Positions 3,793-55,939 are shown, counted from the stretch's first letter. The stretch: DNA of 64,000 nucleotides from a virus (IMGVR_UViG_3300011008_000010:32001-96000); one strand, 5' to 3'. Program-made: numbers and translations. Notes: generated from the letters alone by a model not told the origin.

Positions 3793-4934
3793 AATGCCAC
3801 CTTCCTTTCGTTGAGTGTATGAGTGTTAGAAGACCGCGCATCCGTATCGCGCTTGCTTCTCCGTATCCGCGTCCGGCGTCGCCACCGACCACTCATAGCA
3901 TGGCATCGATCACAAATCCTGTCAAATTCGAAAGTTTGTTTGGGACGCAAAAATTGCCCGCAAAGCCGCACGGGTACTACAAAAAAATTTTTTTCGATTG
4001 TGACAAATAACAATTTATTTCAGTCGATCGGGGGAAAAATTTTCCATGCCGGGGGGGTACGGAAAGCCCATAAAATCAACATTTTTTTGTCGGAGGCCCA
4101 ATCACTCACCTTCATACACAGACCAAAAAATACCAATCCAGTCACTCCCAAAATAATATACAAAACAAATGTTCTTTCTCCAAAAAACCTCCTCTCCCAC
4201 ACTCACATCCATCTAATAACTCATATAAAAAAAACAGAAACTATGTTCGATAAAATATCTTCCTGGAACCTCTCTTTTTCAAAACCTCAAACTGCGAAAT
4301 ATGTTCAAAATTACTACGATTTTTTCCAACCCCTTTTAACTATCATAAAATATTCATCAGTGACACATTTTTTATCGTTTTATGATTATCTCACAACTGT
4401 ATTAATTCCATCTTAACAATCCCAATAATTATATCCCGGCACATCCTAACGCTAATCCTTCCCTCACATTTAAACCATATGTTCGATATTTATAAAATTA
4501 TAAAGTTCTAAAAATACTCTAAACACCATTCCACCCGATTTTTTAACAATTATCTGCTTGCATATCTCGCCATTCTGGAGTATTCTATAAGCACATTAAT
4601 CCGCAGAGAGATAAATAAACTTCGGTTTGTCGAGAGCATATGAACAAATCATGAACAAAACCCCAGAAATCCATCAACAGGAACCTTTGAAAATCATTTA
4701 AAAACAAATCAAATTTAAATATTTTTATTTAAAACAGGATGTTTTTTGATAAAACGAAACAAAAACAATTCAAAACCAAAAACAATTAAAATAATTGTCA
4801 GACAACTAATTAATTTAACCAAATCTCGGCTAATGCACAATAAAAAAAATAACAGAAACGTGTCAAGGTAAAAATAGATAAACCAAACACCAGGCAACCA
4901 TCAACCATCATCAAGTTCAAAAAGGGGGAATCTC

Positions 4935-37400: not shown

Positions 37401-40400
37401 AGTACGGATAAAGAACAGCTTGATAAGTTAGAGCAAGAGCTGAATACTTTTAATCTTGATAAGCTTGCAGAAAAAGCAGAGGCTCCTGCCAGAAAAGCAA
37501 TTGACGAGATTACTGTCGGACTTGGCAAGGTTAGAAAAGAACTTTTTGAAATTGAAAAAGCTACTATCAAACCGGCCAGTGCCTTAAAAGATCTTGGTAA
37601 GAAACTAAGAAGTTTTACCGGAACGCAAGAATGGCGCGACACATCTGATGCAAATATTGGCCTTAATTATATTGGATCAGAAGAGCAGCTTGCCAAAATA
37701 AGAGCTGCACGTCAGGAAATTGCACAGCTTGTTGAAACTGTCGGCAATATCAGCAAAGAATTCACCAAAGAAGAAGCCGAGAAGTTTACAAAGCAATATG
37801 AGAATGCAATCAGTAAGTTTGAAAATGCCGTAAGAAATGTTCAGAGAAAGACGGCTAAGAGCGGGAATGTTACTGTTCTTGGTACGGACACGTTGCATCA
37901 AGTTCAGGAAGTTGAAGATGCTATTAAACGCATTAATGAAATAGGTGCAAATGCTAATATTCAATGGACCACAAAAACAACCGGCGACATTACAAGGCTT
38001 ACCGGTGTTCTTACTGAAAATGATGGTACGGTAAAGACTCTTGTATATGATTACAATAATCTTACTACAGAGTTGTCTGAAGTAAGCGTCACAGAAAAGC
38101 AAACTGAAACATTTATGCAGCGCATAACAAAGTTGCTTCGCCAGAGAAGCGATGCTTTGATTGCGTACATTGGTACGTTCGCAAGTTTCTATCAAGTTAT
38201 GGGGAAACTTCGTGAAGGTGCTACTATTATCAAACAATTAGATACAAACATGACGGAGCTTCGTCGTGTTAGCGGTGCGACCAGAGGAGAATTGGAAGCT
38301 TTTAAGAGCACCGTTTTTGATATCGGTAGAGAAATTGGTTCTGCCGGAGATACAATTATAAAGCTTGCAGCAGATTATGCAAGACTTGGTTATTCATTAA
38401 GTGAAGCAAGCGAACTCGCTAAAGCATCTGCAATGTATATGAATGTAGGTTTTATTGATGATGCGACTTTTGCTATGGAAAGTTTAACATCGACGATGAA
38501 AGCTTACGGGATGCAAGCGAGTGAAGTTGCAGATATTGTTGATTAGAGTCGTTATCATATTGAAATAGATAACGATATATAGTTAGTCTATAGAGAAATC
38601 CGTAGATAGCGCGTTAAACGCCAACAAAGAAACTGAATTGCTGGGATACCGTAAAACTAATAGAACTACAACATAGGGATGAAACAAACTCAAGTGTGAA
38701 TGTGGCGAAAGCAGAAAAAATCTATTAGATGGCACATGGTTAAATCCTAAATGCTTCTACAAGAAATTGGTAATCAGCAGCCAAGCTCCGAACAGGAGAA
38801 GGTTCAACGACTATCCCTCGTGAGGGGAGTACACGCAAGCGCGTGGAAGTGGTTTCGCCTAAACGTATCGTAAGGTACGCATGGATAAGATATAGTCTGT
38901 GCCTTACTGAAAGGTAAGGAAGTTCATAAGAGAACTGCATGAGAAGTAGCGAGCTTATGTGAACGACGCCTCTAAAACGGCTAAAGTTGTGTGGTAATTA
39001 ACAAGTGGTTGTTACCGCTATGCATATGTAAAATTTTTAATATGTTTTTTTGCTTGACTTATTAGGGATAAATGCAGCATAATATTTATCGTGTAGTGGA
39101 TATATAATTTATTTATAGGTTTTGCGCATATGATTAAATCATATAGATTTAGACTTTATCCCAATAAAAGTCAAAGAGAACTTATGGCTCAAACATTTGG
39201 TAATTGCAGATTTGTCTATAATTATTATTTGGATAAAAGAATAAAATACTATGAAGAAACCAAAGAAACGTTTGGGTTTTATCAATGTTGCAAAGATTTA
39301 ACAGAATTAAAGAAGAAGTATGAATGGCTTCAAATATCCGATAAATGGGCTTTGCAAAACACATTGAAAGATTTGGACTTTGCGTTTAAAAATTTCTTTA
39401 GAAATAATGGTTATGGATATCCTCGGTTTAAATCAAAGAAAACACATAGATATTCTTATAAAACTACTTTTACAAATAATAATATAAAATGGTCGAAATC
39501 TGCAATTAGACTCCCAAAATTAGGTTGGGTTAAAGTAAGAGACAAACAAATACCACAAGGCAGAATTCTTAATGCTACGGTAAAACATGAACCATCTGGA
39601 AAATATTATTGTTGTATTTGTTGTACGGATGTTGAAATATCTCAACTTCCAAAAACGGGTTTAAACATTGGAATGGATTTAGGCCTTAAAGAATTTGCAG
39701 TTACCAATGACGGAACGAAGATAAATAATCCTAAGCACCTAGATAAGTCACTAAAGAAGCTTGTTAAATTGCAGCGAGAACTAGACCGAAAGACAAGGAA
39801 TAGCAATCGTTGGAATAAGCAAAGAATTAAAGTGGCTAGAATGTACGAGCGGATTACGAATCAAAGAAAAGATTTCTTGCAAAAATTATCCACGCAGATA
39901 ATATCAGACTATGACATTGTATGTCTTGAAAAATTAGACATACAAGAAATGATTGAACGTGCTGATTTTTCAAGAAGTATATTTGACGTATCATGGAACA
40001 TGTTTGTTCGAATGCTCGGATATAAAGCCGAATGGTACGGTAAAAAGGTGGTTAGGGTTGATAGATGGTACGCCAGTTCGCAAATTTGTTCGTGTTGTGG
40101 GCATGTTTACAAAAAGACAAAAAGTTTGTTAGTTCGGGAATGGACGTGTCTTAAATGTAAAACTCATCACGACAGAGATGTGAACGCTGCAAAAAACATA
40201 TTAAAAGAAGGGCTTCGAATAGCCTAATGTATGTATAGCGGTAGGAACTACCGTGTTAGCTCGTGGAGAAAGTAGGTAACGAAATCTGTGAAACGAGAAT
40301 CCGCAACTTTAGTTGTGTGAGGTTCAGAAGTTTAATGAAGTGGGTAAATTGTTGCCCTTGAATGGCTATATCGGTCAAAGGGTGGGGACACCAGAGACCG

Positions 40401-43400
40401 AGCAAAGACTTAATATATTGCCGAAATGTGCTTAAAGAAAATGCGTTGAGGATAAACAATATGTTATGGATGCGTAACGACTGCGATATGGTATGTGGCA
40501 ACACATATTGTTAAGCCTATCCATGCGTAATAAGCTATCGCATGTAATATACAGTCTGAACTACCGCTATAATCCAAATAATTATGAAACGGTAGAGTAA
40601 GGCCGAAAGACCTTGCCGCCACAGAAATGTGGTCATAAAAGCAACAGTTAAATTTGAACAATTTTGCAATTAGCTCTGAAGGCATCGGTGAAGCCTTACA
40701 GAGATCTGCTGCTGCGCTTGCACAAGCAAACAATGATTTAGACAAGAGCATCGCTCTTGTTGTGGCTGCTAATGACGTTGTGCAGAATCCTGAAACAGTT
40801 GGTACTGCACTGCGCACGGTGGCTCTTCGCATAAGGGGTAACACATGTTATTTTATTTTGTGCCCATCCAGAGAGAAATCCTGGTCTGCGTTGCGAATAA
40901 TAAATTACGCAGCATGATCGCTATATCGGTCAAAGGGATAACGGTATCCAGAGACCGACGTAACCCATAGTGGGGTACGCTACAGACTGCCAGATCTATA
41001 TGGCAACATATAGGTTTAAGCGATCTCGCTCTCCTATTCTGGAAACGATGATATACAGTCGGAACTCACGCTATAACCGTAATTAATGAAACGTGAGAGA
41101 TAGCCAGAAATGACTATCCGCCCGCAAGGGTCAGTAGCTTTAATCCAGGCGAAAGTAACAGAGTGGCAAAAGCGGATTTAGAAGAGTTAGGTGAAGACAC
41201 GGATGGATTAGCTAGCTCTGTATCGTCTTTAAGAGCAGAGGTTCTGGCACTTTCTGGTGTTGACATCATGATTGATGACAACACATTTAAAGATACTTAC
41301 AACATTCTAAAAGAACTTGCCTACGTATGGCATGATTTGACGGATGTTTCCCAAGCAGCTCTCTTAGAAAAGCTTGGTGGCAAACGTGGTGCTAACGTAA
41401 TCGCATCTATCCTTAGTAATGTAAACGATCTTGAGGCGGCTTATGCAGCCGCTGCTAATGCTGCCGGTTCTGCATCGGCAGAAAATTTAAAGTATCTAGA
41501 AAGTATCGAAGGTAAATTATCTCAACTCTCTGCTTCCTGGCAGGAGTTTTGGGATTCTTCATTTTTAAACAGCGTATTTAAAACCGGAATAAATTTATTA
41601 AATGGATTTGTTCAGATCTTAAATGATGCTGGCGGCATAGATTTTGCCATCACGCTCGCTGGCGTTGTTGGTTTGACACAGGCTATTAAACGGCTTGGTG
41701 GTTTTACCGGCAAGATAACAGAATTATATAACTCCTTTAAAGATTTCAGGGCGCTCATGAAAGATAATAATCTGAATTGGGCCGGTCTTTTTAAAGGGAG
41801 TTTCGTCAACGAGAAAGATATTAAAAAGAATGTAGAAAAAGTTGTTGGCAGTGCTTTCTCAACATACAATCAGGTATTTAATGCCGGTGGTGGTACTCAG
41901 GAAGCTGCTGCAAAAGCAAGTAGTGCGGCTTTAGCAGATCTCGTAAAAAATCAGGATCTATTGGCAAAATCATCCAGCGATTTAACTAAGTCTATGATTG
42001 AACGGGCTGCTCAAGAAGGTACGAACATAACGCTTGAACAGCAAGAAGCGAAGACAGTAGAAGTTCTGAACAATGAACTTGAGACTGGCGGAAAGAACAG
42101 TGCTCAATTTGCTAAAGGTCAAGCGGCAATGAAGAGTGCTATTGCTGCTATTGCTGTTATTGGCGTTTCTCTTGCCATTAATGCTATCAGCGCCTACATT
42201 CGAAAACAGGACGAATTAAGAGAGAAAATTATTGAGAACGGTAAAACGCAAGTAAAGCAAGCACGTAGTTTGCGTGATGCCGTTAATAGTTTTGATAAGA
42301 TCAATGCCGACTATAAGACCGGTGCGGCGACATCAGACGAATTAAGAAATGCTATTGAAGGCGTAAACGAAGCTCTCGGAGATCAAAAAGAATTATTAGC
42401 CGGTGTTTCGTCTGGCAGTGATACTTGGAGAAAGCGTCTCGATGAATTAATCGAGAAACAGAATGAGGTTGCTAAGAACGCGGCTCGTTCTGCGTTGTAC
42501 AATGCATCTAAGAAAAGTGCGACAGATACGGTCAAAGGTATTGGCTGGAGCATTGCCAAATACTGGACTTCTTCTTGGGGAGGTATGTTGCCGATTGGCA
42601 ACCTCCTTAAAGACGTAAATCCGATCTCTAAATTTTTTGGAAATAAGAAGGATCTTACCAATCGATCTTCTCAAATTAAGGCATTAAAGGAATGGCAGGA
42701 TGAGTTAAAAGAACTCGAAGAAGAATATAAAGAACTTGAAAAAGCCCAAGAAGAGGCTATGTCGGAAAATAATGGTGCTGCACTAAAGACCAATCCGATA
42801 AAGGTTCTTCTTGGTTGGCAAACGGATTATGCGAAAGAACTTGATAAGAATCAGAAGAAACAAGACGAGTTAATCAAGAATATTGCTCAATATAATGATT
42901 CTGTTCAAGAGACGGCTCAGGCAGCAGCATATCTTGTTTGGGAAGACAGTATTAAAGATATAGATAATGCGGCTGACAAATACAAAAAATTAGATAAAGC
43001 CGTAGAGGATGTAATTAGGACATTTGGACTTGCCGATGACGAAGAAGGCATCAAAGCCGCCAAAGAAATGATTCTGAGTTTCATGGAAATGGATTCGGAA
43101 TCTGCTGGGTTTATGGCTCTTAAAAAGGGAGCCGAGGATGCATCTAAAGCAATTGGTGCTGCAAGCGTTTCCGTAGAAGGACTGTTAGAAGCGTTTGATA
43201 AAGGAGATCTGACCGAACAAGACATTTTTGATCTTAGCGATGAAAGATTTAAGAATTATGTAGAGCAGAACCAACTTTATATTAAGAGTGTAGAGCAAGC
43301 TATCGAAACGCTTCATGCTTGGAAAGATGAAGTCAGAGCCGAGGCGAAAGAAACCAATACGCTTGTTGGTGTTATTAGGGACTCTAAAGATGCCATAGAT

Positions 43401-52839: not shown

Positions 52840-53784
52840 GTGCTTAATATGTTTTTCCTAAACTCTCAATTCATCGGAGATGTTCATTCGATATGTCATA
52901 CTCCGATCGAATCAGACAATTTTAAAAATATTAAATTGCAGAATGCCATCTTCGACGCTTTCTCAATGACACATGATATATTTTCTACTCCGTCTTCGAA
53001 CTATAATAAGATTTGGGATATAGATACGATTCTTTATGCAGAATTTCAGAATTCTGTATCTGCCGGTTCTGTTGATTGGCAGAAATCTGATACCCCAATG
53101 TATCTGATCAAACGTAGGGAATCTGGCGGAGACGAAAATTCATGGATCACAATTGCAAAATACGATATTATAGATGGCGATTCTGTAAACGAAGCAGGCG
53201 TTGATTTCCTGAATGCTTCTAAAATTACATATGATTATGCCTTTGTCCCGATCAGGAACGGTTCAGAGGGCGAGTATATTATGAATACTGTATACTCAGA
53301 ATTTGATGGAATCGCAATCATGGAACAAGGAGAATACTGGTGGTCTCCTATTACCGATGCATTCGTGAATACAACAAGGAATGTCGAGAAAAACTTTAAT
53401 ACTATGCTTAACAACAGATATCCTATTTCTGTGACAAGAGCAATTACCAATTATGATTCTGGAGATGGTCATGGTATGTTCTTGCCGTTCAACGAAGAGG
53501 ATTGCAAGTTTGTTTCCGAAGATAGTGCAAGAGTTAAACACCAGAGAAAATTTATGGATTTTCTTACAAACTATCAGCCGAAAATTCTCAAGACATTGGA
53601 TGGCAGAATTTGGTTGGTCGATGTTGCACCAAGCCCTTCAGACCAAGCCAATGGGTATTATGATGAACGTTACGTCGATTTCACATGGCATGAAATTGGA
53701 AGATATGATTCAGAAAAGGATCTGTACCGCTCAAACTTGTTGAATGTAGAAGAAGAATTCTGGTCGCAGAACTATGCGGACTGA
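52840..53784 (+). CDS. putative distal tail/baseplate protein
   Basis: IKRR...W.TI, NYDSG, PKILKTLDGRIWLV, FTWHEIG. Confidence 0.6.
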   Translation: MLNMFFLNSQFIGDVHSICHTPIESDNFKNIKLQNAIFDAFSMTHDIFSTPSSNYNKIWDIDTILYAEFQNSVSAGSVDWQKSDTPMYLIKRRESGGDENSWITIAKYDIIDGDSVNEAGVDFLNASKITYDYAFVPIRNGSEGEYIMNTVYSEFDGIAIMEQGEYWWSPITDAFVNTTRNVEKNFNTMLNNRYPISVTRAITNYDSGDGHGMFLPFNEEDCKFVSEDSARVKHQRKFMDFLTNYQPKILKTLDGRIWLVDVAPSPSDQANGYYDERYVDFTWHEIGRYDSEKDLYRSNLLNVEEEFWSQNYAD

Positions 53785-53946
53785 AGATGCGGAGTTCACA
53801 GCTTTAATTGTGAAAATGAGAGGTTGGCAATACCGTAGGGCATACGGAAATTTACGCTTGTGGACTCTGTGTAAGACTAAAGGTGTGAGCCAATGCAGTA
53901 GAGGTTGAAGCAAGAATCCAGCTATTTTAATTGTGGGGAGTGTCAT
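53785..53946 (+). mobile_element. non-autonomous IS605-type mini-element: left hairpin plus omegaRNA-like right end (boundaries approximate)
   Basis: TTCACAGCTTTAATTGTGAA; CCGTAGGGCATACGG; GCTTGTGGA...GAAGCAAGAATCC; TTTAATTGTGGGGAGTGTCA. Confidence 0.7.
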
Positions 53947-55939
53947 GGCTACTTATTTTATTACTGACAAAGACATCGAACTTATTACGATGCAGAATCC
54001 AATTAAATATGTTGCACGTTTTGAAGTCTATGATTCAAACGAACAGATCATAGACGAAGTGGACGGCATTATCGAGGCTGGTGATTACTCTATCAGTTCC
54101 GATTCGGATGTGCGGAGAACGGTGTCTTTGACGATTGCACCCAGCCAGTTACATCCACATAATATGATCTTTGAAGAAGGCGGCAATATTTGGCTTGATA
54201 AAACCGTCCATTTAAAGATTGGCATTATTGATATCAAAACTGGAGATATAACATATTATTCTTCTGGATATTATGAGTATACGGATGTTAGTGGACACTA
54301 TGATGTGGCTACCAATAATTTAACAGTATCTTTGAATGATTTCATGGTTCTTTTAGACGGTACAAAGAACGGACAGATAGGTGCTTTATCTACTATTATT
54401 CCTGCTTACCAAGAAGATCCTACGACCGGAGAAGTAATCGAGTATAACTATATTAGAGATGCTATGGTTGCTGCGGTTAGTCAATTGGGAAAAGTCAAGG
54501 AATGCTATGTAGAGGATATTGGAGAAGCCTTTGGTACTGAGAGATTTAATCAGAATTTTGAGGAGTACAGACGCATTCATCCTTTGTGGGCAAGCGTACC
54601 GTATGATCTTGAGTTTGGAACAGGAACATCTGTTCTTGAAATTGTAACGAGTCTAAGAGATTTGTACCCAAATTATGAGGCGTTTTTCGATCCGATTTAT
54701 TATAACTCTTTTGTTTGCCAGCAGATACCAAGTTGTTTGGATGATAAACCTACATTTACAGATGATTTTATGCAATATGTTGTTATTTCTGAGGATACAA
54801 GCGTAGATTTAACGACAGTCAAGAACGTGTGCGAAGTGTGGGGGCAAATTATCGAAACAGATTTCTACACAGAAGACTGCGATATGTTTAATGACGTTGA
54901 AATCAGATGTAATGTGGCTGCTTACGATGAAGACTATAAGAACAATGATAAAATTGCCGTTATGATGCCGGAAGACAGCGAATCAGAGTTATATATCAAC
55001 GTCAATGAACTTGGCAGAGTTCCTATTTATGACAGAAATACCGATAAATTTTATGAAGCAGGAACGTTTTCTAAGAATTACGTATATGTATTTCAGATTG
55101 ATCGGTCTCGCATTGAGGGTGTAACTATTACCAAAGCATATTATATTGGCTCCTGGCAGGTTCATGCTATTGATGCGTTAGTAGATGGGTCTCATAATTC
55201 AGGAACACATACTTGTTCTGACGGCAGAATTGTACAGAAGTATAGCGAAGAATATTTTCAGGATGTTTACAATTGTAAAACGGTTCATTTAACGATCTAT
55301 CCTGATTCTCCGTATACGGTGCAAAAACTCGGAGAGTTATTGGATGTCAAAAGTGGTGATGAATATGACAATATTACGAGCGACTATCTTGCAGAGCAAA
55401 GAGCGATCTTTGAAAATTGGAGAAATTGCAGGCTTACAGATCATATTACTATTACCACTCTTTTGGTCCCATATTACGATGTAAATGTTAAGGTGAACTA
55501 CAGGCCGATAAGAGATGAAGAAGCGCATGACTATATCATTTCTCAAATTAGTCACAACTTTGATTCTCTCACTTCTACGGTCCAGATGTATCGTTTTTAT
55601 CCTTTGTACAACGAAGAAGAAAAGACTACATATGGTTATAAGGGATTGGATGAAAACTTCGTTTGTCTTGGATATCAATATGCTGTTGGCAGTATCTTTG
55701 TGCATGATGGTGAATTTGAAATGTGTGAAGAAGGCTTCCATTTCTGCTTGGATATGAACGATGCGTTTAAGTATTATCCTCCTGAACTTGGGAGTAGGTA
55801 TGCATATGTAAAAGCGTATGGACCGGTTGATGTATCTTTAGATGATACAAAAACGGTATGTAGAAAAATCGAAGTTATTAGAGAGATCCCTTTAGCGGAA
55901 GCAAAATATATTGCAAGACAGACAAAGGGGTTGGCTTAG
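53945..55939 (+). CDS. baseplate hub-like tail protein with an extra C-terminal domain
   Basis: SDSDVRRT, LDGTKNG, LRDLYPNYEAFFD, VKNVCEVWG; C-terminal GYKG..C.GYQY.VG..CEEGFHFC domain. Confidence 0.7.
   Translation: MATYFITDKDIELITMQNPIKYVARFEVYDSNEQIIDEVDGIIEAGDYSISSDSDVRRTVSLTIAPSQLHPHNMIFEEGGNIWLDKTVHLKIGIIDIKTGDITYYSSGYYEYTDVSGHYDVATNNLTVSLNDFMVLLDGTKNGQIGALSTIIPAYQEDPTTGEVIEYNYIRDAMVAAVSQLGKVKECYVEDIGEAFGTERFNQNFEEYRRIHPLWASVPYDLEFGTGTSVLEIVTSLRDLYPNYEAFFDPIYYNSFVCQQIPSCLDDKPTFTDDFMQYVVISEDTSVDLTTVKNVCEVWGQIIETDFYTEDCDMFNDVEIRCNVAAYDEDYKNNDKIAVMMPEDSESELYINVNELGRVPIYDRNTDKFYEAGTFSKNYVYVFQIDRSRIEGVTITKAYYIGSWQVHAIDALVDGSHNSGTHTCSDGRIVQKYSEEYFQDVYNCKTVHLTIYPDSPYTVQKLGELLDVKSGDEYDNITSDYLAEQRAIFENWRNCRLTDHITITTLLVPYYDVNVKVNYRPIRDEEAHDYIISQISHNFDSLTSTVQMYRFYPLYNEEEKTTYGYKGLDENFVCLGYQYAVGSIFVHDGEFEMCEEGFHFCLDMNDAFKYYPPELGSRYAYVKAYGPVDVSLDDTKTVCRKIEVIREIPLAEAKYIARQTKGLA

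Follow-up and report, generated by a model that had tools for sequence, protein, structure and literature searches.

A probable protein-less IS200/IS605 derivative with an omegaRNA scaffold at a stop/start junction of a phage structural operon

The present analysis concerns the 160-base gap between two structural genes of a large tailed phage, i.e. between the TGA stop codon at 53782-53784 and the ATG start codon at 53945 of a 64,000-nucleotide window (the whole stretch of DNA analysed, bases 32001-96000 of the 137.8-kb IMG/VR virus record IMGVR_UViG_3300011008_000010, estimated completeness 77%). The gap is an omegaRNA-bearing remnant of an IS605-type insertion sequence (IS). It probably represents a non-autonomous, protein-less derivative of an IS200/IS605 element (IS605 type, with Y1 TnpA plus TnpB) that was inserted at the stop/start junction, is now immobile and has had its end reused for the translation of the downstream gene. 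No credible open reading frame (ORF) is present in the gap; frames of 44 amino acids on the plus strand and 71 amino acids on the minus strand are without Pfam match. An earlier note on this DNA had described the gap as a mini-element consisting of an orphan omegaRNA and a left hairpin, without protein, a description that is borne out by the covariance model match and the left hairpin reported below and by the lack of a credible ORF. The sequence motifs quoted in that note were all located at the positions given there.

Identity of the gap as an omegaRNA scaffold

The 3' flanks of tnpB genes were taken from 13 phage records (tblastn with the TnpB of the window as query) and have a common layout, consisting of the hairpin ACCGTAGG..CTACGG, the motif AGCYTG..., a variable centre, ...CAAGAAKCYC, a terminal hairpin and the end G(R)GTNGTTCA or GGAGTGTCA. 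A covariance model, R1 (A4), was built from seven tnpB 3' ends with the gap sequence left out; it matches the gap end to end at 53830-53945 (59.1 bits, E 3.8e-12, model positions 1-107; the E-values are rough because of a short calibration). Within the window, R1 gave only one other real match, the omegaRNA of an IStron at 40236-40326 (80.4 bits). The earlier note had named a missing likeness to IS605 right ends as an observation that would speak against its proposal; the covariance model clearly finds that likeness.

A pattern scan of IMG/VR added 25 loci of the closest omegaRNA subfamily, among them an intact IS605 with tnpA and tnpB on contig 3300011005_000089 (hereafter L115). Positions 53830-53919 agree with the L115 omegaRNA in all but one of 90 bases (89/90), the lone mismatch being at 53887; to the element of the Enterocloster phage CB473P3 (OP172757.1, L011), the identity of the gap element is 79-80% over 118 bases. 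The helices of the subfamily (hairpin 1, the long-range stem GCUU/AAGC, the internal stem and the terminal hairpin) are backed by covariation in 15 TnpB-linked copies. Based on the R1 match, the identity to L115 and these covarying helices, the scaffold assignment is secure, and since the core equals that of L115 at all but one position, the gap retains hairpin 1 as well as the long-range and internal stems. It lacks the portion with which full elements overlap the stop codon of tnpB. The parts of the element and of its junctions are the following:

53781-53784, plus strand: CTGA, candidate transposon-adjacent motif (TAM); the favoured left boundary would lie directly after it, based on its predicted pairing with AGTT at 53793-53796
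53785-53829, plus strand: left end, with a short subterminal segment (ATGCGG), the hairpin TTCACAG-CTTTAA-TTGTGAA (53795-53814) and a linker ending ATGAGAGGTTGGCA; assigned by folding as single-stranded DNA (ssDNA) and by comparison with L115
53830-53919, plus strand: omegaRNA scaffold core, with the hairpin CCGTA/TACGG (53833-53847), the long-range stem GCTT/AAGC (53856-53859 with 53908-53911) and the internal stem; assigned by R1 and by identity to L115
53918-53938, plus strand: eroded right-end, guide-adjacent hairpin (CC AGCTAT TTTA ATTGTG GGG); assigned by mismatches to L115 and by folding
53935-53940, plus strand: GGGGAG, 4 bases before the ATG, read from the sequence as the Shine-Dalgarno motif in use
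53943-53946, plus strand: right-end cleavage motif, here TCAT (TCAA in all 27 related right ends); its A, at 53945, also opens the start codon
53946-53965, plus strand: would-be guide, identical with the first codons of the downstream gene; assigned by homology to TnpB-linked omegaRNAs

The motifs GCTYGTGGA and GAARCRAGAATCC, on which the proposed likeness to the IStron omegaRNA had been founded, both occur exactly twice in the window, namely at the IStron 3' end (40290) and in the gap (53907), in agreement with that proposal. The scaffold subtype of the gap nevertheless differs from that of the IStron, its centre being 25 bases longer and its end reading GTGTCA versus GGTTCA. A search of the gap against Rfam at gathering threshold gave no match, and Rfam seems to be without a model for this omegaRNA clade. 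At relaxed E-value, the best near-match (53819-53920) was HPnc0580, a small RNA of Helicobacter pylori (17.7 bits, E 1.9) that has the hairpin and the ..AAAUCC end in common; this hints that the HPnc0580 family is itself a piece of an IS605/IS608 omegaRNA.

The left ends of the relatives were compared by eye. The left hairpin of the gap (-3.5 kcal/mol as ssDNA) differs from that of L115 (CCCACGG TTTCAA CCGTGAGG) by nine changes, all of which are transitions and which include three compensatory pairs; the flanks ATGCGG and ATGA-AG are also common to L115. Because of this homology, the gap can be read as the product of an internal deletion that fused the left and right ends, a layout typical of the PATE elements discussed below. 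The 10-mer TTTAATTGTG at 53803-53812 is repeated at 53926-53935, and CAGCT..TTTAATTGTG, amounting to 15 shared bases, is common to the left and right hairpin regions, as had been suggested for the two ends. The element is present as a single copy in the record, and an exact scan for sibling copies of the left hairpin in 2.9 million viral contigs (IMG/VR) and 185,579 GTDB genomes yielded only chance matches with no omegaRNA nearby.

Insertion between two native gene ends

The genes that flank the element are the following:

52840-53784, plus strand: upstream structural-region gene, phrog_27355, function unknown; from the ORF list and PHROG match, with its TGA at 53782-53784
53945-55939, plus strand: downstream baseplate-region gene with DUF5048 and DUF7666 (Pfam) and the N-terminus MATYF

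In IMG/VR, 80 distant relatives of the upstream gene were collected, and a downstream ORF was called in 79. The next long ORF begins -8 to +20 bases from the stop codon in 73 of these, the six outliers having a small ORF that starts at the stop codon; an omegaRNA was not found at this junction in any of the distant IMG/VR relatives. Several of them read TAATGGCT, an overlap type matching the reconstructed CTGATGGCT. The C-terminus of the upstream protein (..WSQNYAD) is kept in homologues at 72-88% identity, as is the N-terminus of the downstream protein (M-S/A-T-Y-F); the relatives of the latter start with MSTYF, MSTYS or MSTYN, so that the position of the start codon is ancestral. Since both termini are conserved at this level of identity, both gene ends are native and the element lies strictly between them. 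Judged from these sequences, the gap can be regarded as an insertion. Close relatives of the locus were not found by megablast among phage records, by peptide patterns of single proteins in IMG/VR or GTDB genomes, or by two degenerate-pattern scans of JGI metagenomes, and an overly specific DNA pattern of the mini-element gave no match.

Deletion of 53785-53945 leaves CTGA plus TGGCT and thereby TGATG, the coupled stop/start that the earlier note had predicted. Most likely, the element would span 53785-53945, with an empty site ...GACTGA/TGGCT and the overlap TGATG; an alternative boundary, placed by means of the ATG that is repeated at both junctions, would give ...TGAAGATGGCT. With either choice, the start codon is restored beside the stop codon, and spacer-less alleles are predicted to read ...GACTGATGGCT or ...TGAAGATGGCT.

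In elements of the IS608 type, the cleavage motif pairs with a 4-base DNA guide that precedes each hairpin on its 5' side. AGTT, which precedes the left hairpin of the gap in this way, would pair with CTGA by the scheme seen in the relatives (AAAA with TTAT or AAAG with TTAC in five relatives, and GAAT with TCAA); the spacing between left motif and hairpin is 12 bases in the gap element versus 16-21 bases in the relatives. Covariation of the motifs with the DNA guides and a flexible spacing between the two were confirmed by Meers et al. (2023; PMC10055086). On the right side, all 27 related right ends read ...GTCAA, whereas the window has GTCAT-GG: either the last A was lost, so that the element ends with the A at 53945 and is followed by the target TG, or this A was changed to T.

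Two other arrangements were considered. The creation of the present ATG by an A-to-T change at 53946, with an old start codon at ATG 53774, is ruled out by the relatives, which start with M-S/A-T-Y at the same position. A left boundary at 53776 after CTAT, which would restore the family spacing of 21 bases, is disfavoured by the ..AD-stop codons common to homologues at 75-88% identity. As a separate observation, a 7-base direct repeat, ATGCGGA (53774-53793), is shared by the last codons of the upstream gene and the left end of the element at a distance of 13 bases; it may be due to chance or to microhomology in the insertion or in a later rearrangement.

Erosion of the right end

The conservation of the scaffold ends abruptly at its 3' border: the 26 bases after GAATCC contain seven mismatches to L115 versus one in the preceding 90 bases (Fisher p ~1e-4), all seven being located at 53920-53936. 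As RNA, the right-end stem forms no hairpin in the minimum free energy structure, compared with -12.2 kcal/mol in both L011 and L115 and -9.5 kcal/mol in the IStron; as DNA, it contains two internal mismatches and reaches 0 kcal/mol versus -7.0 kcal/mol in L011. The terminal, guide-adjacent stem, which covaries in 15 relatives, has been lost in the gap element, and the end hairpin claimed in the earlier note does not fold. Of the features of a PATE-like right end, neither the subterminal hairpin nor TCAA was found; because the homologous region is unfolded and the motif is TCAT, the gap element is regarded as a decayed PATE-like member. In consequence of the absent terminal hairpin, the TCAT end, the single copy and the lack of a Y1 transposase in the whole 137.8-kb record (77% complete), the copy now appears to be fixed and immobile.

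Translation signals of the downstream gene

GGGGAG (53935-53940) is followed by TGTC and the ATG at 53945, and no other motif resembling a Shine-Dalgarno sequence is present near this start codon. The other genes of the operon have GGAGG-type sites about 5-9 bases from the start, the 4-base spacing found here being at the short end. From their position, bases of the element (GGGGAG-TGTC-A) supply the Shine-Dalgarno motif and the A of the start codon of the downstream gene, as the earlier note had read this end. In the relatives, the GGA of GGAG is paired by the right-end stem, whereas GGAG is free in the gap element. The GGAG is conserved in every right end of the family, i.e. the start-fusion arrangement rests on features of every family member; however, a fusion to an ORF start is seen in none of the 27 right ends from relatives and is thus unusual. 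The suggestion of a domesticated translation signal is reasonable as regards the present role of the motif, but not as regards its origin, since GGAG is conserved family-wide and did not evolve at this site. The element has the orientation of the late operon, and no conspicuous promoter or terminator was found in it; it is thus expected to be read through as part of the mRNA.

Based on these features, the following history is proposed. A shortened left end with its hairpin would have been joined by an internal deletion to a right end encoding the TnpB omegaRNA scaffold, and this derivative would have entered the tight junction of the two structural genes, most likely just after CTGA in an ancestral TGATG overlap. 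As the right ends of the family all finish with ...GGGGAGTGTCA(A), the insertion would have delivered a ready-made Shine-Dalgarno motif and an A ahead of the target TG, and for this reason the essential downstream gene could have retained a start codon, with a newly acquired ribosome-binding site replacing the translational coupling between stop and start, which the insertion would have broken. Afterwards, the right-end hairpin needed by TnpA (and probably by TnpB) would have eroded, whereby GGAG was freed from sequestration; the end motif would have lost its last A, and no transposase is found in the record. We infer that the loss of the hairpin was selected for translation over transposon function. 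The shared CAGCT..TTTAATTGTG could alternatively derive from gene conversion or from an unsampled lineage of ends.

If this history holds, an IS605-type end can be accommodated harmlessly at the tightest point of an essential phage operon: because every right end of the family carries GGAG and a final A, an insertion before ..TG would rebuild both ribosome-binding site and start codon. The loss of the end hairpin beside a nearly untouched guide-RNA core would then constitute a small natural experiment on transposon function versus host-gene translation.

Several points weigh against the history proposed here. The pairing of CTGA with AGTT could be a coincidence, as the left subterminal segment of 12 bases is shorter than that of the relatives, and the boundaries are reconstructed ones, the left lying at 53785 or up to 53789 and the right at 53945 or 53946. 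A transposase or a second TnpB could be located in the missing 23% of the record or in the host. With only one change in 90 core positions, the element is young, and its core may still be bound by TnpB. Moreover, random erosion accounts less well for the sequence CAGCT..TTTAATTGTG shared by the two ends than do gene conversion or co-evolved ends of an unsampled IS lineage; therefore, the element may be less decayed than its folding implies.

Guide function

The position of the guide directly after the right end is established for TnpB-linked omegaRNAs (Meers et al. 2023; PMC10055086), and by this homology the guide of the gap element would read GGCTACTTATT... or TGGCTAC..., in agreement with the earlier prediction that it would equal the start of the baseplate gene. 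The only TnpB encoded in the whole record is part of the IStron (38544-40327, with a group I intron called by Rfam at 38569-38919):

39130-40326, plus strand: TnpB (39130-40227) and its own omegaRNA (40236-40326), part of the IStron in the tape-measure gene; identified by Pfam, R1 (80.4 bits) and a search of the whole record

Conceivably, the gap could act as an active stand-alone guide, the omegaRNA being loaded in trans by the TnpB of the IStron or of the host and directing the cleavage of sister phages without the insertion (target GGCTACTTATT... beside ..CTGAT), whereupon the element would be copied by recombination or the rival damaged. This explanation is considered unlikely. The intact scaffold core, nearly identical to that of an autonomous element, would be suited to such a role, as would the orientation in common with the operon and the TnpB encoded 14 kb upstream; use of the omegaRNA in trans by TnpB was demonstrated by Zedaveinyte et al. 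(2023) and is expected for PATE omegaRNAs by Meers et al. (2023; PMC10055086), and CTGAT, which precedes GGCTAC in the empty site, agrees in four of five bases with the TTGAT that flanks the left end of the IStron (boundary set by eye). However, the covarying guide-adjacent stem does not form, the IStron scaffold differs by a 25-base indel, and the TnpBs that accompany the scaffold subtype of the gap share no more than 44-46% identity with the resident TnpB. The TAM of the cognate subfamily is TTAT or TTAC instead of CTGA(T), so that the left flank ACTGA fits neither this family nor the TTGAT of the IStron. In addition, bound TnpB would cover the Shine-Dalgarno motif and the start of an essential gene. 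The proposal that the gap serves as an active trans-acting guide for the TnpB at 39130 is not supported, in view of the same differences in subfamily, cognate TnpB, stem and flank; the gap RNA is presumably no longer a working guide, and a present guide activity is improbable from the sequence features. A guide-only selfish element without TnpB, in which omegaRNA produced by read-through of the late operon would arm the TnpB of the IStron against sister phages lacking the insertion at the baseplate junction, is likewise considered unlikely. If it were true, the same bases would also form the ribosome-binding site, and a single RNA would be contested by nuclease loading and by translation of the baseplate gene.

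Slightly less likely than an active guide is a still-mobile PATE of an unsampled IS lineage with matching hairpins (CAGCT..TTTAATTGTG) and a retargeted DNA guide (AGTT with CTGA), served by a TnpA from the host or from the missing 23% of the phage. It would account for the left hairpin, whose pairing is kept by compensatory transitions, for the 15 bases common to the two ends and for CTGA/AGTT, which follows the pairing pattern of TTAT/AAAA and TCAA/GAAT in the relatives at a spacing that is allowed to be flexible (Meers et al. 2023; PMC10055086). Its mobility is difficult to reconcile with a right hairpin of 0 kcal/mol with two internal mismatches, with a TCAT that breaks the fourth pairing position, with the single copy in the record and with the chance matches, none near an omegaRNA, that were the sole outcome of the exact search for the left hairpin. 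A chance resemblance, or an ordinary structured intergenic region without relation to transposons, for which nothing speaks beyond modest folding z-scores of the whole region, is practically negligible in view of the R1 E-value of 3.8e-12, the 89/90 identity to a TnpB-linked omegaRNA and the lack of a spacer at the junction in the relatives. The immobile, protein-less derivative remains the probable explanation.

Comparison with known elements

Among the closest counterparts, the elements of L115 and CB473P3 have the same length, helices and ...GGAGTGTCA end as the gap element and a homologous left hairpin, besides the core identities of 89/90 and ~80%. Both genes, tnpA and tnpB, are present in them, their end hairpins are perfect, the target motif is TTAT, the end is TCAA and the left subterminal segment measures 20-21 bases; the gap element, in contrast, lacks the genes and has an eroded right hairpin, CTGA, TCAT and a segment of 12 bases. 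In CB473P3, an unannotated IS200-type tnpA (L011:790-1192) was observed upstream of the annotated tnpB; it shows an apparent frameshift in an A-run (AGGAGAAAAAATATTC) and is in frame in L115.

IS608 of Helicobacter pylori shares the top-strand subterminal hairpins and the 4-base DNA guide that pairs with the cleavage motif, and the GAAT/TCAA pair of the family equals that of the IS608 right end. The gap element has another target motif, and its right-end pairing is broken at position 4.

TnpB-less omegaRNAs of the same family occur in phages of the same broad group, namely in the cultured Enterocloster phage CB457P1 (OP172753.1, 2741-2859) and at the IMG/VR loci L096, L097, L104, L105, L106 and L113. 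CB457P1 and these six IMG/VR orphans arose independently, by internal or 5' deletions; they differ from the gap element in that the terminal hairpin is intact, the end is TCAA, the surroundings are ordinary intergenic DNA and none is fused to a start codon. The gap element adds to these TnpB-less guide-RNA cassettes in gut phages, and if any of them works in trans, guide-only selfish DNA would be at hand. L105 (IMGVR_UViG_3300031760_000128, ~4412-4590, minus strand) retains only the last 8 tnpB codons and abuts a sequence resembling a tRNA 3' end (GGTTCAAATCCTTACCC). The 220-kb IMGVR_UViG_3300037502_002993 (L096, L101, L104, L110, L113) contains six omegaRNA copies of a sister subfamily, three with and three without TnpB; based on these six copies, TnpB elements have multiplied within one phage genome. 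L118 (5849-6013, plus strand) has a second, partial right end, in which an odd inverted duplication (..CTCCACAAGCGTTAATTCGGGCAG / CTGCCCGAATTAACGCTTGTGGAG..) replaces the 5' half of the scaffold.

With IStrons of the CdISt1 type and the IStron of the window, located in the same genome, the gap element shares the omegaRNA layout (hairpin, GCTYGTGGA ... GAARCRAGAATCC, end hairpin region and TCA); the IStron omegaRNA, in contrast, belongs to another subfamily, has a centre that is ~25 bases shorter, a TTCA+G end and an intact terminal hairpin (-9.5 kcal/mol), and is tied to intron and TnpB.

Among described elements without genes, PATE-like (palindrome-associated) IS200/IS605 elements of Geobacillus stearothermophilus often encode omegaRNAs that require use in trans (Meers et al. 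2023; PMC10055086), and a PATE with IStron ends was shown by Zedaveinyte et al. (2023). In common with the former, the gap element has no protein gene, a left hairpin combined with an omegaRNA right end, a predicted guide set by the flanking DNA and the need for any TnpA and TnpB to act in trans. It differs from them by its location at an exact stop/start junction of a phage structural operon, by an end that forms a Shine-Dalgarno motif and the first base of a start codon, by the degenerate right hairpin and end motif, and by its presence as one copy in a record that contains no transposase. The kind of element is thus already known; the points peculiar to this copy are the start-codon fusion and the selectively eroded hairpin, and alone it opens no new question.

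Genome context and further observations

The proteins of the phage are distantly akin to those of Enterocloster bolteae phages and of prophages of Lachnospiraceae (Kineothrix). The listed GTG start of the upstream ORF (52840-52851) is probably 9 bases too early, all homologues beginning at the residue that corresponds to ATG 52849 (MFFLNSQF). Downstream of the IStron, the tape-measure gene is interrupted by two similar inserts without ORF (40340-40640 and 40845-41150), for which Rfam gave no call even at relaxed E-value; they share ..CTATATCGGTCAAAGGG..CCAGAGACCGA..TATACAGTC. A third IS605-type right-end remnant of ~55 bases is present in the same phage outside the window (L123:1614-1667; G000:C1 ~114614-114681). 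It reads ..GTAGCAAGAATCC CTCTGCCTTTAGGCATGGGG AGTGTCAA, is without scaffold core and directly follows the stop codon of an ORF, with the hairpin intact and a TCAA end.

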